Assembly (NCBI GenBank): GCA_965200245.1
Contig: CBDATS010000005.1
Span: forward strand, 480,001-544,000
Origin: a bacterium
GTDB lineage: Bacteria; UBA8248
DNA length: 64,000 nt
Reading direction: 5' to 3'
A program made the translations under genes and the position numbers. The first letter of the stretch is position 1. Each line of letters starts with the position of its first letter. Positions 4,451 to 30,940 of the stretch are shown here, piece after piece. The notes under the pieces were generated by a model that did no database searches, was not told the DNA's origin, and was given only the letters and a program-made list of their open reading frames with translations.

Positions 4451-4595
4451 ATAGAACATGCGATGAAGTCGACCGGTCAGGCACCCTCGTGGCACCCGGG
4501 AGTATCCACTGACCGCTGCTTCCTTCCGGACCTGACGGGGTTCGCAGGCTCCCGCCGCACGAGACCCGACCGGCCGAATTCATGGCAAGTTCCAC
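4451..4595 (-). ncRNA. ffs: signal recognition particle RNA (core about 4475-4571, stem extends to at least 4451-4595)
   Basis: Minus strand reads GAACCCCGTCAGGTCCGGAAGGAAGCAGCGG, the conserved helix 8 of bacterial SRP RNA, within a long complementary stem. Located upstream of dnaX, a common position. Confidence 0.95.
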
Positions 4596-4971
4596 CGGGA
4601 AATCTTACCCCGTCCCCAGGTCTTTGGGAAGCCGGAGCATCGGCAATTTGAGGATTGCGACTCGCAAGTAAGGCAACCATGCTAACATCATGGCCTTAGA
4701 AGTATCCCATTCAAAAGGCCTGCGAAACGATGCGCAAAGACAATATCAGCGACTGAGCCACTTCTGGGGCGAGGGCGCAAAAAACTGCAAGATATATGGC
4801 AGGAATAGTTTGCGGCCTTTTCCAAAAGCACCGGAATCATTTTCCCGCTTCTCTAGCATTTGCGAATCGCTAATTCACAGCAAATAAGGTTAGAATGAAC
4901 CTTTCAAACATTTGGTCGAGTGAAGCTCCGGTTCTTTGTTTTGCAACATTTCAGGAAAGGCCATCGGAAGC

Positions 4972-5835
4972 ATGTCGTTTTCCAAAGTCGTCGAACTCAA
5001 AGAGGGGAAGGTCTACGCCCTCCACAACACGTTTCCCCTGGACGGGCGTATTAGCGCATACCCCATCAGTGCGCGCGGTCACAGCGTATCGAACTGCTAT
5101 CTCCTGAAAGAAGATAACGGAGCCCTCCTGCTCGACACGGGCTACGCCGCCCATGAAGCCGAAATTCTGATGCAACTCGAATCCATCCTCGAACCGACCA
5201 CGCCCCTGATAATGCTTCCGCTTCGCATCAACGAATTCATGTCGGTCGGCAACGCCATGGCGATTGCCAAGCGCTTCAATGTGGTGGAATGCCTGGCTCC
5301 GGTGCCGGAGATCAATGATTGGCTGGAGTTCGAAGCGCTGGAACCAGGCGGCAGGAACAACGGCAACCCCGTTCTTTCCACCACGATACTGAAGCCGCTC
5401 CATCCTATCGAACTTGGTGACAGATACATTGAGGTGATGAACGCGCCGATTCGCCTCATCAGCACGCGGTGGATATACGATGCGGCCACGCGCACCCTGT
5501 TTTCTTCGGACATGTTCAGCCATCTCTGGGCGGAAAAAACGGAGGGCCCCTGGATACTGGATGAGGATGAGGTAACGACGACATCTTTCGTTCGCTCGTT
5601 CCTGCTGAACACACGCTACTGGTGGCTTGAGGGCGCGCGGACAGATTCCATACGAAAAGGTATCGCAGAAGTTTTCGAGCGCTACGATATAGAAACCATT
5701 GCCCCGGGCTACGGCGCCATCCTGCACGGGCGCCATCTTGTCGAACAGCAATTCGCCGTGCTGGACGAGGTTCTGGCGGATCTTGATCGGAGTATTGTCA
5801 AGCCGGGGTACGTTGCACTTGGCCTGGAGAGATAG
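4972..5835 (+). CDS. MBL-fold protein (flavodiiron/ODP-like) with degenerate metal ligands
   Basis: NCYLL...ALLLDTG, TLFSSDMF, IETIAPGYG. The HxExDH motif is replaced by LRINEFMS and the PxHG His by Tyr. Confidence 0.65.
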   Translation: MSFSKVVELKEGKVYALHNTFPLDGRISAYPISARGHSVSNCYLLKEDNGALLLDTGYAAHEAEILMQLESILEPTTPLIMLPLRINEFMSVGNAMAIAKRFNVVECLAPVPEINDWLEFEALEPGGRNNGNPVLSTTILKPLHPIELGDRYIEVMNAPIRLISTRWIYDAATRTLFSSDMFSHLWAEKTEGPWILDEDEVTTTSFVRSFLLNTRYWWLEGARTDSIRKGIAEVFERYDIETIAPGYGAILHGRHLVEQQFAVLDEVLADLDRSIVKPGYVALGLER

Positions 5836-5843
5836 GAGCGAGC

Positions 5844-6602
5844 ATGAACCCACTGCCCCGTGAAATCTCTCCGGGCGTCTTCTGGCTCGGTGACTGCCTT
5901 GTGCAGCACTCGCAAGGGAAAATCTATCACTCCTACAACGCGGCCTTCCTCGTCATCGGCACTGAGGCATCCATGCTTGTAGAGACGGGACATCCCAAGG
6001 ACTTTCCCATCATCGAGCATCAGATGAGAGATATTCTCTCCAAAGGAGGAGGCCCGCTCAAACACCTGTTCCTTACCCATCAGGAAACCCCCCACTCGGG
6101 CGGTCTAGGCCGCGTTCTCGACAGATACCCCGACCTTACCATCCATGGGGACATGTCCGACTACCATCTGGCGTTCCCCCAACACGAGAACCGTTTCCAA
6201 GAGATGCGCGTCGGGGAGACCATAGACTTGGGAGACTCCCAGTTCATGGCCGTGGAACCCATAATCAGGGACCTGAGAAGTTCTCTGTGGGGTTTTGAAA
6301 CAAAAGGACGCGTCCTGTTCCCCGGAGACGGCTTTGCCTACAGCCACTACCATACGGACGGGCATTGTGGGATGTTTGCCGAGGAGGCCACCTCTCTGGA
6401 TCTGGTCGACGTGCTGGGTGTGTTCGCGGAACGCGCCCTGTTCTGGACCACCTTTACCGATATGAACATATACGCCGACAAACTGGAAGAACTGATGGAA
6501 TATCTGGGTGTCGAAGTAGTCGCGCCGACACACGGCCTTCCCATACGAGACATTGCACGCACGATGCCCAAGGTAAGAGAAGGCCTGATCCGGGGCGACT
6601 GA
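5844..6602 (+). CDS. MBL-fold metalloprotein (flavodiiron/ODP-like)
   Basis: PREISPGVFWLG, YNAAFLV, LVETG, FLTHQETPHSGGL, VLFPGDGF, VAPTHG. Confidence 0.75.
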   Translation: MNPLPREISPGVFWLGDCLVQHSQGKIYHSYNAAFLVIGTEASMLVETGHPKDFPIIEHQMRDILSKGGGPLKHLFLTHQETPHSGGLGRVLDRYPDLTIHGDMSDYHLAFPQHENRFQEMRVGETIDLGDSQFMAVEPIIRDLRSSLWGFETKGRVLFPGDGFAYSHYHTDGHCGMFAEEATSLDLVDVLGVFAERALFWTTFTDMNIYADKLEELMEYLGVEVVAPTHGLPIRDIARTMPKVREGLIRGD

Positions 6603-7254: not shown

Positions 7255-7818
7255 ATGCAAGAAGACCCCATCGACGGACACTCCACCTCCATCGTGCCTG
7301 GTGAGCGCGTCATCGACAAGCCGGAACTTCCCCGTGGAGGGCTTTATACCGACAACACCGTCCACACCGAGATGTATGAAGGCTCCCTGCAGTTGAAACG
7401 CGGCACGGCGGGCGATTTCGAGATTTTCTGTGACGAGGGGGCGCACATTGGCGGCACGGCCCAATACCCCACGCCGATGGCCTATCTCGCCATGGCGACG
7501 GGATTCTGACTGCTTACCCAGGTGTCGCGGTACGCGCACATGATGAAAATGCAGATCAAGGGAGCGAGCGTCTCGGTGCGTTTCCGAAAGTTGCTTGGCG
7601 GCTCGGTGCTTAAAGGCACCGTGTTCAACAAGTGGGAGGCTGTGGACACACATCTTAAAATCGAATCAGACGAGCCGGCAGAGAGGCTCGCTCACCTGAT
7701 AAAGAATGCCAAGAATGGATGTTTCGCCGAGAGTTTGATCACCGAGCCGGTGCCACTTCACTCCACCGTGGAGGTGAACGGCGAACCCTTCCAGATAGAG
7801 GGCGTCACGGCGGATTAA
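7255..7818 (+). CDS. OsmC/Ohr-family selenoprotein (Sec at TGA 7507-7509)
   Basis: GAGGAG RBS then ATG 7255. Track ORFs 7129-7509 and 7522-7818 are in one frame, separated only by TGA. Read-through gives DEGAHIGG...PTPMAYLAMATGF-U-LLTQVSRYA...KNGCFAE, with U at the first OsmC catalytic Cys and the second Cys intact. Confidence 0.88.
7522..7539 (+). promoter_or_regulatory. candidate bacterial SECIS element (OsmC-like gene)
   Basis: GUG(U)CGCG-GUA-CGCG-CAC hairpin starting 13 nt after UGA, with a bulged U and a GU-containing apical loop at about +20 to +23. Geometry resembles the E. coli fdhF SECIS. Confidence 0.7.
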
Positions 7819-7840
7819 CCCCCAGAATGGAGTTATTTTG

Positions 7841-8299
7841 ATGGAATACTTCAACGCATCAGATGACATCGCTTTCGGCTCGCAACCCGAACCTGCGGAT
7901 TTGAAGACCCTCGCCGAAAACGGGGTCAAGACCATCATCAACACCCGCTTCCCCGAGGAAGACCAGGGCGACCTCCCGCCCGAGCGTGCCAAAGTCGAAG
8001 CAAAGAAGCTAGGGATGCGCTATGTGAACATCCCTGTTTCGCCGGTCGAGTTCAGTCCAGCCTCACTTGCCGAGGTGAACCGCGCGCTCACGGAAGCGAA
8101 GGCCCACGGGCCCGCGTTCGTACACTGAAAGGCAACGGGGCGGGCCGGGATTTGCTCGCTGAATCATCTGGCGGACGAGAACGACTGGACAGCGCAGGAG
8201 ATGGAGCAGGCGGCCGACGCCACCGGTTTCGACTGGCGCGACGCGCCGCTCGCGCCAAAGTACCGCGAGTTCTTCTCAAGGAGACCCCAAGGGGAGTAA
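7841..8299 (+). CDS. DUF442/TIGR01244-like rhodanese (PTP-fold sulfurtransferase) selenoprotein (Sec at TGA 8126-8128)
   Basis: GSQP...DL..LA..GVKTIINTR...E and GMRYVNIPV, then PAFVH-TGA-KATGRAG, with U at the C of the HCx4R loop. The frame stays open 56 more codons including AADATGFDW (DUF442-like C-terminus) to TAA 8297-8299; 152 aa total. Confidence 0.82.
8136..8158 (+). promoter_or_regulatory. candidate SECIS element (DUF442 gene)
   Basis: CGG(G)GCGGG-CCGGGA-UUUGCUCG can fold into a G-U-rich stem with a G-containing loop at about +17 to +22 from UGA. Weaker than the OsmC hairpin. Confidence 0.4.
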
Positions 8300-8488
8300 C
8301 TCTCGCATATCCTCGCATTTGCAGTCATGATCGCGCCTGTAAATTCGTGTCTCCTCACCTTGTTTCCGGCGAGGGGGAAATATGTACCTTCGAACAAAGC
8401 AAATATTGATACTACTTGCCTTGGATATTTGAGGGTTCTATAATCTCTTAACTTTCCAGACTTTCCGGGTGGCCGAGGAGGCGAGTAC

Positions 8489-29988: not shown

Positions 29989-30286
29989 GTCCGGCCCTCT
30001 TGAAGGATGTGGAATTCGTACCGCCCTCACGAAATGCCGCAGGAGAGAAAACCAGATTCCGGGACCCTTCAACCGCCTCACATCTTTTCTATAAATCCTA
30101 TGAATAAACAAAAACTAGCAGGAATCGCCGCTCATGTCATCCCGGAGGGCACGCCTGGCGACTTCTGTTTGAACAGGAGTTTTCGAGAAGAAATCCTGCG
30201 CCCGCGTGAAAGATTGCGCCCGTTCTGGGAAGATGAATAATTCATGAGAAAAATACCGGAACTCGCATTCGATGAGGAATGATTCC

Positions 30287-30940
30287 ATGTCCAGGGTCCC
30301 GTTGCTCGAAAGAGAAAACGCCGGGGGCGAGATTGCGCGCACCTTTGACATCCTGAACAACTTTCAGCGAAGGCAGGTTAACTCCACTCGTGCAACGGCG
30401 CACTCCCCATTTCTGGCGCGTATCTTCTATCCCCTCGTCCAGACCCTCATGCGCGAAGGGCTGGGAACCGTGCTGTCTTCCAAAATCAAGGAGCTCGCCG
30501 TCATCAAGACCAGCCAGATAAACGGGTGCGACTACTGACTCGCCCACAACACCGCTCTCGGCCGGGTGCTGGGAATCACGGATGACCACGTTGCCGCCAT
30601 CGGATCGGATGTGTACATGGATTCGCCGCTCCTCACGCCCAGGGAAAAGTCAGCCGTCCTTTGGGCCGAACATGTGACGCGAAACACCGCCAGGGCCCGG
30701 GACGATGTGGCTGAAGAAGTGCAGAAACATTTCACGGACGCCGAGTTCGTGGAACTCACCTTCGTCATCAGCTACTTCAACATGAGAAACCGCTATCATG
30801 ACTCCTTGAAGTTGCCGAACGACAAGACGGAAATCGTCGAGGACATCAACCGCCTTCGGCCTGATCCGACGAAGCTCAAAAGGTTCTTGCAGGAAATTCT
30901 CGACCACTGGCCGGAAGCTTTCCCCGAACCCAATGAATGA
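30287..30940 (+). CDS. AhpD/carboxymuconolactone decarboxylase-like selenoprotein (CxxU; Sec at TGA 30536-30538)
   Basis: Track ORFs 30272-30538 and 30566-30940 are in one frame. Read-through gives KELAVIKTSQINGCDY-U-LAHNTALG, matching the AhpD NxCxYCxxxH motif, followed by LTPREK.A..WAE.VT and FTDAEFVEL...I..FN..NR. Confidence 0.9.
30543..30573 (+). promoter_or_regulatory. candidate SECIS element (AhpD-like gene)
   Basis: CCCA..CACC..GGUG.UGGG lower stem; upper part can form a GGCC loop at +22 to +25 from UGA. Confidence 0.45.

Follow-up and report, generated by a model that had tools for sequence, protein, structure and literature searches.

A DUF442 Gene with a Conserved In-Frame TGA: Probably a New Selenoprotein Family of Marine Nitrospinota

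The Gene and Its Reading Frame

The gene considered here lies at 7841..8299 on the plus strand of a 64,000-nucleotide stretch of DNA from a bacterium of the UBA8248 lineage (contig CBDATS010000005.1, positions 480,001 to 544,000), referred to as the window throughout. It encodes a predicted selenoprotein of 152 amino acids belonging to the DUF442 family with its protein tyrosine phosphatase (PTP) fold. The coding sequence is a single frame of 152 codons from the ATG at 7841-7843 to the TAA at 8297-8299 and is interrupted solely by a TGA at 8126..8128 of the plus strand. This TGA is codon 96, where selenocysteine (Sec, U) is predicted at the nucleophile position of a P-loop reading H-U-K-A-T-G-R. 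A GGAG ribosome-binding site, read from the sequence, is found at 7829..7832 on the same strand, 8 nucleotides (nt) 5′ of the ATG. With translation table 11 the listed open reading frame (ORF) is 7838..8128, which begins at a TTG, comprises 96 amino acids and ends in ...GPAFVH, whereas ATG 7841 is the start in all 21 relatives described below. The window holds a single copy of the gene.

The original prediction claimed that the frame reopens directly after ...GPAFVH with K-A-T-G-R-A-G-I-C and continues for 56 residues to a TAA, restoring an HCx4R loop with Sec as the nucleophile, a Cys nine residues after U and an AA.A.GFD tail. Translation of the TGA as U bears out the layout of the frame. 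The product has 152 amino acids, U96 is followed by K-A-T-G-R-A-G-I-C-S-L, and there are 56 residues from U96 to the TAA. His95 and Arg101 stand on either side of the TGA-coded position, the Cys nine residues past U96 is Cys105, and the tail reads QAADATGFDW. The Cys105 codon (8153..8155, plus strand) is TGC in 22/22 sequences of the clade formed by the window and its relatives; this clade-specific residue may serve U96 as a resolving residue or as a partner. The last two bases of the codon fall in the 3′ arm of a hairpin at 8139..8160 of the plus strand, a candidate bacterial Sec insertion sequence (bSECIS).

The arrangement is more than chance, as family models align on both sides of the TGA and 21/21 related loci carry the same TGA within the same open frame. 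Our overall reading, to which we assign a probability of about 0.8, is that of an intact DUF442 gene whose UGA codon 96 is decoded as Sec, with sulfur transfer as the favoured activity of the product. That the gene with its U96-coding TGA is a conserved, true selenoprotein gene is very probable; the activity is a separate matter and is discussed below.

Conservation of the TGA and Selection on Both Sides

A scan of one genome per species yielded 71 loci (L001-L071). The first 21 represent as many different species; their metagenome-assembled genomes (MAGs) bear the titles Nitrospinota, Nitrospinaceae or “bacterium”, and their proteins are 49-89% identical to that of the window; the remaining 50 (L022-L071) belong to Acidobacteriota, Planctomycetota and others. 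Codon 96 is TGA in 21/21 of the former and a Cys codon in 50/50 of the latter, so that the TGA is found in 22/22 clade sequences when the window is included. In all 21 relatives an ATG stands at the aligned position, the frame stays open for 148-155 codons, and no frameshift or second stop occurs within the domain. At position 96 of a wider protein alignment (A4), Cys is present in 53 of the 58 Cys-form rows and Ser or Asp in the remaining five. The possibility that this TGA is a singleton among Cys-containing homologues, raised together with the original prediction, is not what was found, and the proposed identity of the nucleophile gains support from the alignment of the TGA with Cys in the homologues; Sec insertion itself is predicted.

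Protein databases tell the same story through truncated entries. Among 40 matches to the window protein, 38 are 95-residue proteins ending in FVH, one of which is the window's own while the rest are 72-87% identical; the two with a named source are both from Nitrospinae. An exhaustive search of representative sequences returned 1417 relatives at E up to 1e-3, the top 150 of which include the truncated forms P0045, P0049 and P0087 at 43-52% identity and a 53-residue ORF, P0055, that matches residues 98-148 only. A profile built from the three truncated forms retrieved 47 proteins, and 31 of these end in [FY][VI]H at approximately 89-95 residues; again the two members with a named source are both from Nitrospinae. 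Independent homologues with TGA at the same codon are evident from the 21 Nitrospinota loci and are accompanied by these [FY][VI]H-terminated proteins.

Selection was compared on the two sides of the TGA using 136 pairs from 17 close-clade sequences. Codons 1-95 have a median ratio of nonsynonymous to synonymous substitution rates (dN/dS, NG86) of 0.172; the median for codons 97-148 is 0.166, or 0.155 when the hairpin codons are omitted. With these near-equal values, protein-level constraint is just as strong past the TGA as ahead of it. These data settle the question of a pseudogene, in which a nonsense mutation would have turned a Cys codon (TGC or TGT) into TGA. Such a change requires a single base only, but the same TGA is present in 21/21 loci of different species, down to 49% identity, with no frameshift or second stop in the domain and with a downstream dN/dS of 0.17. 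Nor can one contaminating sequence account for the pattern, for the 21 loci differ at many positions. The pseudogene reading is effectively refuted.

The Cys105 column of alignment A4 separates the two forms almost completely, with Cys in 15/15 Sec-clade rows and in 1/58 Cys-form rows, the single one being P0035. Of the full-length Cys homologues this protein (162 amino acids, from a 1-kb metagenome contig), also one of the 40 database matches mentioned above, comes closest, with 49% identity across residues 1-151. Its loop, H-C-K-A-I-G-R-A-G-V-C, resembles that of the window protein, including the Cys at +9, and differs in carrying Cys at position 96. A quick IQ-TREE analysis was carried out on 60 rows, comprising 22 Sec forms, three truncated forms and 35 Cys forms taken from the top of the exhaustive representative search, with fused and much longer proteins excluded. 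In the resulting tree, which is unrooted and carries no bootstrap support, one clade contains the 22 Sec forms together with P0045, P0049 and P0035 (Shimodaira–Hasegawa-like approximate likelihood ratio test, SH-aLRT, 96). P0035 is nested in this Sec clade as the sister of the truncated P0049 (SH-aLRT 96), and P0087 is the sister of the whole clade (SH-aLRT 91). As an unrooted tree it is compatible with one change from Cys to Sec and a later reversion.

A second group of truncated DUF442 proteins (P0049, P0191, P0198 and relatives) is approximately 39-44% identical to the window protein, and many of its members end in YVH. P0198 is located on a contig of 3,941,598 nt, equal in size to the chromosome of locus L008, and P0191 and P0028 are both located on a contig of 2,145,923 nt. 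Certain genomes may carry two Sec paralogues.

Family and Fold of the Read-Through Product

The original prediction assigned the protein to DUF442 with a PTP fold and expected family models to cover both sides of the TGA. A profile scan of the 152-residue product agrees on both counts. PF04273 (BLH_phosphatase, formerly DUF442) matches with 43.2 bits against a gathering cut-off of 26.1, aligning residues 7-102 with positions 6-99 of the 110-position profile. The NCBIfam model TIGR01244 aligns with residues 8-131 across the TGA; its score is 45 bits against a curated cut-off of 85.85, and by the NCBI criterion the protein is a divergent relative of TIGR01244 and not a member. The Blh model NF040641 aligns through its N-terminal domain (residues 6-135, profile 3-130 of 423, E 2.8e-15; 56 bits versus a cut-off of 625). 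A rhodanese domain, PF00581, has no Pfam match in the protein at E up to 1.

The AlphaFold2 model, computed from a 73-row alignment, is one compact alpha/beta domain with a mean predicted local distance difference test score of 94.8 and a predicted template modelling (TM) score of 0.90. Residue 96 is located between a strand (92-95) and a helix (100-114). The best Foldseek matches in the PDB are 3gxg (E 1.5e-8, TM 0.73) and 2f46 (E 3.5e-8, TM 0.73/0.78); the top matches 3gxg, 3gxh and 2f46 span TM 0.70-0.78, and the dual-specificity phosphatases and other PTP structures form a second tier. A profile search against the PDB ranks the same entries (2f46, E 6.6e-20; 3gxg, E 9.5e-17), and phmmer with the single 152-residue sequence gave no match in the PDB. 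The predicted structure is nearest to DUF442 structures, namely NMA1982 of Neisseria meningitidis (2f46) and a putative phosphatase of Shewanella putrefaciens (3gxg/3gxh), which are the best matches by both profile and fold (TM about 0.7-0.78 over approximately 141-145 aligned columns). They differ in being Cys proteins and are only 18-21% identical to the window protein; their PDB titles assign them no function.

The loop itself has His95 and Arg101, with TGA in place of a Cys codon at the position of the nucleophile; the Arg is kept in 15/15 Sec rows and 54/58 Cys rows of alignment A4. Compared with most Cys forms, the loop Gly is displaced by one position towards the C-terminus (H-U-K-x-x-G-R versus H-C-x-x-G-x-R). 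P-loops of Cys-based phosphatases have the motif length C-x5-R. The spacing from U96 to R101 is four residues, in contrast to the C-x5-R of classical PTPs and dual-specificity phosphatases.

The fold also bears on whether the TGA might be a true stop, giving a 95-residue N-terminal product while the 56 downstream codons are kept as a separate peptide or as an RNA element. Gene callers do report 95-residue proteins in 38/40 and 31/47 database clusters, an ATG follows the TGA in certain relatives, and the 53-residue downstream ORF P0055 has been called as a protein. Nevertheless, the 95-residue product ends one residue short of the nucleophile, and according to the model it would be without the active-site loop and the three helices that complete the compact domain. 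Moreover, there is no in-frame start codon between the TGA and the P-loop in the window, purifying selection downstream equals that upstream, and the downstream codons align with family models. Termination at this codon is therefore a very improbable explanation. Wherever a source names the product, databases annotate a 95-residue “sulfur transferase domain-containing protein”; this is a mis-annotation.

The Hairpin Downstream of the TGA

The candidate bSECIS starts 10 nt past the UGA. It consists of a 5′ arm (8139-8145), an 8-nt loop (8146-8153, CGGGAUUU) and a 3′ arm (8154-8160), with a UGA-to-loop spacing of 17 nt. When 60 nt from the TGA were analysed with RNAalifold for 22 sequences, i.e., the 21 loci and the window, one consensus hairpin was obtained (columns 14-35) with a 7-bp stem and an 8-nt loop in all 22. 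It is near-invariant even across sequences whose proteins are only about 50% identical; the sole variable stem position changes from G-U to A-U in three sequences and keeps its pairing. The hairpin was compared with four bSECIS constraints taken from the legend of Fig. 2 of PMC13188914. It has an 8-nt loop (C-G-G...) with G at loop position 2, a 7-bp stem, a spacing of 17 nt and a folding energy of −9.7 kcal/mol in isolation (z = −2.2 versus shuffles), in agreement with all four. The agreement holds for 22/22 Sec forms at an identical position.

A second line of evidence comes from synonymous sites. Among invariant columns with a degenerate amino acid, a single codon is used in all 22 sequences in 5/7 columns within codons 100-107 as compared with 1/30 elsewhere in the gene (Fisher one-sided p = 2.7e-4; Mann-Whitney on codon entropy p = 5e-4). 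Relatedness alone fails to explain this codon freeze because the contrast lies within one set of related sequences.

Several observations weigh against the assignment and have to be set beside these data. Compensatory double changes occur in 0/7 pairs among the 22 sequences. Longer single-sequence folds after the UGA are no more stable than shuffled controls, z being +0.70 (81 nt), +0.38 (50 nt) and −0.52 (40 nt). The four constraints are permissive, as 15/49 Cys-form control loci (one further locus was too short) pass them by chance at scattered positions. Rfam gave no match to a SECIS family, either for the whole window at gathering level or for 7450-8350 at E up to 10. The codon freeze is a within-gene contrast among related sequences and does not count independent events. 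As to Cys105, its codon overlaps the 3′ arm by two bases, and because of this the RNA constraint may add to the conservation of the residue. The element is revealed only by the alignment and the codon analysis; folding 40-81 nt of a single sequence gave no signal above shuffled controls. What speaks for a SECIS is accordingly position, invariance and frozen synonymous sites and not structure score. The hairpin provides a clean example of codons under simultaneous protein and RNA constraint.

Selenocysteine Decoding in the Organism

The 42 Pfam-supported ORFs of the window end in TGA (18), TAA (13) or TAG (11). As TGA terminates 18 of the 42, it is not generally reassigned in this organism. The codon keeps both uses within some orthologues: in L001, L005, L006, L013 and L021 the gene has, about 53 codons past the Sec-TGA of codon 96, a second TGA as its stop. 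Since 5/21 orthologues also terminate at TGA, the codon has two meanings inside one short gene.

None of selA, selB, selD or the gene for tRNA-Sec is present within the 64-kb window, which speaks against Sec decoding as far as the window goes; for this reason the Sec machinery of the organism is something that we infer. Relatives are rich in selenoprotein genes. In the part of PMC13326102 that was available, three UBA8248/Nitrospinota MAGs are among the ten bacteria richest in such genes according to BSepDB, and the MAG FO_M_Nitrospinota_01, the source of L019, is credited with 54.

Two further selenoprotein candidates are located in the window. The first, at 7255..7818 on the plus strand, is predicted to be an OsmC-related selenoprotein: it scores 166.4 bits for NF041052 (cut-off 95) and has an in-frame Sec-TGA at 7507-7509, within G-F-U-L-L-T. 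Downstream of this UGA there is a small hairpin with a loop of GUA. The second, at 30272..30937 on the plus strand, is an AhpD-like candidate with the motif C-D-Y-U and a TGA at 30536-30538. It matches AhpD-type models below their cut-offs, namely TIGR01926 (56 bits, cut-off 81.8), the YciW-related (seleno)protein model NF053654 and AhpD_rel NF041238; an ORF that overlaps it on the minus strand (30242-30586) lacks any family support. A scan of the window for ORFs bridged by TGA gave 237 mostly spurious candidates; ten of these and five ordinary ORFs lacking a Pfam match were run against NCBIfam, and of the 15 the AhpD-like ORF was the only one to gain family support over the table-11 reading.

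These observations bear on whether the UGA is read through with a standard residue (Trp, Cys or Gly), by near-cognate suppression or by a local recoding signal. Such a reading would be at ease with the machinery being unseen in the window and with a hairpin that shows no covariation in a setting where hairpins fitting the consensus are common by chance. Against it, the UGA stands where the family has its catalytic Cys, a classic Sec/Cys arrangement, two other genes of the window can be placed in known selenoprotein families and have TGA at the Sec positions known for these, a relative's genome is Sec-rich in the available part of the catalogue (PMC13326102), and TGA is an ordinary stop in 18/42 genes. 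Insertion of a standard residue is thus unlikely. Decoding as Sec would follow the ordinary bacterial recoding mechanism and is not a novel one: the stem-loop 8139-8160 would recruit SelB with Sec-tRNA(Sec), as in the standard bacterial mechanism, and direct the insertion of Sec at UGA codon 96.

Proposed Function and the Selenoprotein Pair

In the read-through product, Sec would hold the place of the nucleophilic Cys in the H-C-x4-R loop of the homologues. Biochemistry is available for the DUF442 domain of Blh, which on its own, in Xylella, transfers sulfur from thiosulfate to cyanide or glutathione (available part of PMC5823870). Blh of Xylella fastidiosa and Agrobacterium tumefaciens (NF040641) resembles the window protein in belonging to PF04273 and in having the His-nucleophile-x4-Arg loop at the same place. 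The differences are considerable. The nucleophile is encoded by a Cys codon in Blh and by TGA (Sec) in the window gene, and Blh has two domains, the other being an ETHE1-type dioxygenase, whereas the window protein is a stand-alone domain of 152 residues. The window gene is, moreover, without a bigR-type operon and possesses the conserved Cys105 and the shifted loop glycine. Fusions point in the same functional direction as Blh. For instance, P0046 (37% identity) joins a metallo-beta-lactamase (MBL) domain, two rhodanese domains and a C-terminal DUF442 domain, and P0047 corresponds to the rhodanese-DUF442 part.

Because of the activity of the Blh domain and the rhodanese-DUF442 fusions, a cycle of sulfur transfer in which U96 carries a Se-S adduct is favoured. 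Sec would take a sulfane sulfur from thiosulfate or a persulfide donor as a Se-S adduct and pass it to a thiol acceptor. The adduct may be resolved by Cys105, which is specific to the clade, or this residue may pair with U96 in a selenenylsulfide. That sulfur transfer is the main activity of the 152-residue protein we regard, by analogy with the family, as an even chance. Three points count against this functional assignment: the score for TIGR01244 is below the curated cut-off, the gene context offers no link to sqr or a persulfide dioxygenase, and the neighbourhood is not constant among the relatives. In 6/21 loci it differs, with isoprenoid genes and ilvD in L015 and L017-L020 and transporter genes in L021.

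The constant part of the neighbourhood suggests another role. The OsmC-related selenoprotein gene ends 22 nt upstream on the same strand, and an OsmC-like gene is directly upstream of the DUF442 gene in 15/21 loci; because of this adjacency the two genes look like a two-selenoprotein operon. The order in 13 of the 15 loci is two MBL-fold genes, a methylmalonyl-CoA epimerase gene on the opposite strand, the OsmC-like gene and the DUF442 gene. According to section 9 of PMC13188914, co-operonic selenoproteins frequently act in one pathway. Hence the protein might be a selenoprotein but no sulfur transferase, U96 and C105 forming a selenenylsulfide pair for the recycling of the OsmC-like Sec peroxidase, for arsenate reduction or for the hydrolysis of phosphoesters. 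The distribution of Cys105 (15/15 Sec-clade rows versus 1/58 Cys forms), the low TIGR01244 score and the shifted P-loop glycine would all fit such a redox pair. On the other side, the adjacency is missing in 6/21 loci, sulfur transfer is the sole biochemistry known to us in the family, and the loop is C-x4-R and not the C-x5-R of phosphatases. We consider this alternative tentatively, as a possible but less favoured role than sulfur transfer through a Se-S adduct.

A more far-reaching proposal would make the protein the first natural selenoenzyme on a PTP/DUF442 fold, operating a U96...C105 selenenylsulfide cycle and forming with the co-transcribed OsmC-like selenoprotein a relay for the detoxification of peroxide or persulfide that is specific to Sec-rich Nitrospinota. 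If so, the loop G-R-A-G-x-C-S would owe its form both to catalysis and to the SECIS hairpin contained in its codons. This proposal is speculative and we regard it as doubtful.

Comparison with Selenoprotein Catalogues

The original prediction suggested that the protein may represent a new selenoprotein family, which called for comparison with published catalogues. The inventory of May 2026 (PMC13188914) lists in its Table 1 119 prokaryotic selenoprotein families or subfamilies with domain identifiers. Among these 119 there is no entry for PF04273, TIGR01244 or a phosphatase fold, and every sulfur-transferase entry is a rhodanese (PF00581 or a model derived from it). In the available passages of the Global Ocean Sampling (GOS) table, sulfur-transferase entries are rhodanese-type COGs only. 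NCBIfam release 20, despite its many selenoprotein models, has no selenoprotein-specific model for the DUF442 protein and gives only two generic matches. A search of the literature full text, with the BSepDB family list (Table S2 of PMC13326102) outside the comparison, found nothing that links a selenoprotein with DUF442, PF04273, TIGR01244 or “beta-lactamase hydrolase-like”. Taken together, the comparison agrees with the suggestion, and the Sec form of DUF442 is probably a new selenoprotein family conserved across marine Nitrospinota.

The closest catalogued counterparts are the Sec rhodanese-like proteins, forms 1-5 (PF00581/NF041203/NF045694; PMC13188914). They are similar in that Sec replaces the persulfide-carrying Cys and in that both are predicted from genomes, but they belong to another fold and family, the window protein being nearest to DUF442 and dual-specificity phosphatase structures. 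If the present reading is true, the DUF442/phosphatase-like fold joins the enzyme classes in which a catalytic Cys is swapped for Sec. It would also supply a second sulfur-transferase scaffold, unrelated to rhodanese, that uses Sec, and the benefit of Sec in persulfide chemistry would then be comparable across folds. Catalogues limited to known families will undercount the selenoproteomes of Nitrospinota.

Other Features of the Neighbourhood

The two adjacent MBL-fold-like genes of the window lie on the plus strand at 4936-5835 and 5844-6599. The first has no family match; the second matches Lactamase_B with 33 bits and weakly resembles the MBL domain of flavorubredoxin. In 13 loci the two genes precede the selenoprotein pair, and one further locus has a partial copy. 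These genes were considered as ETHE1-type persulfide dioxygenases and rejected, in view of the missing family match of one and the weak likeness of the other to flavorubredoxin. Where the adjacency to an OsmC-like gene is missing, the neighbours include genes for squalene/phytoene synthase, an amine oxidase, a transglutaminase-like protein and IlvD. In L015 (1456-2619, plus strand) 293 open codons precede the DUF442 start, which raised the possibility of a DUF442 fusion, yet Pfam finds the DUF442 part only; the upstream open frame is probably due to chance and not to a fusion.

Among the relatives, P0111 (94 amino acids) consists of 55 N-terminal residues of the P0049 type joined directly to a C-terminal tail homologous to residues ~115-150; it is an internal deletion or an assembly variant in which the active-site region is gone. 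The window also encodes a bacterial small signal recognition particle RNA (RF00169, 74.9 bits) at 4472-4571 on the minus strand, just upstream of dnaX, which is on the same strand.

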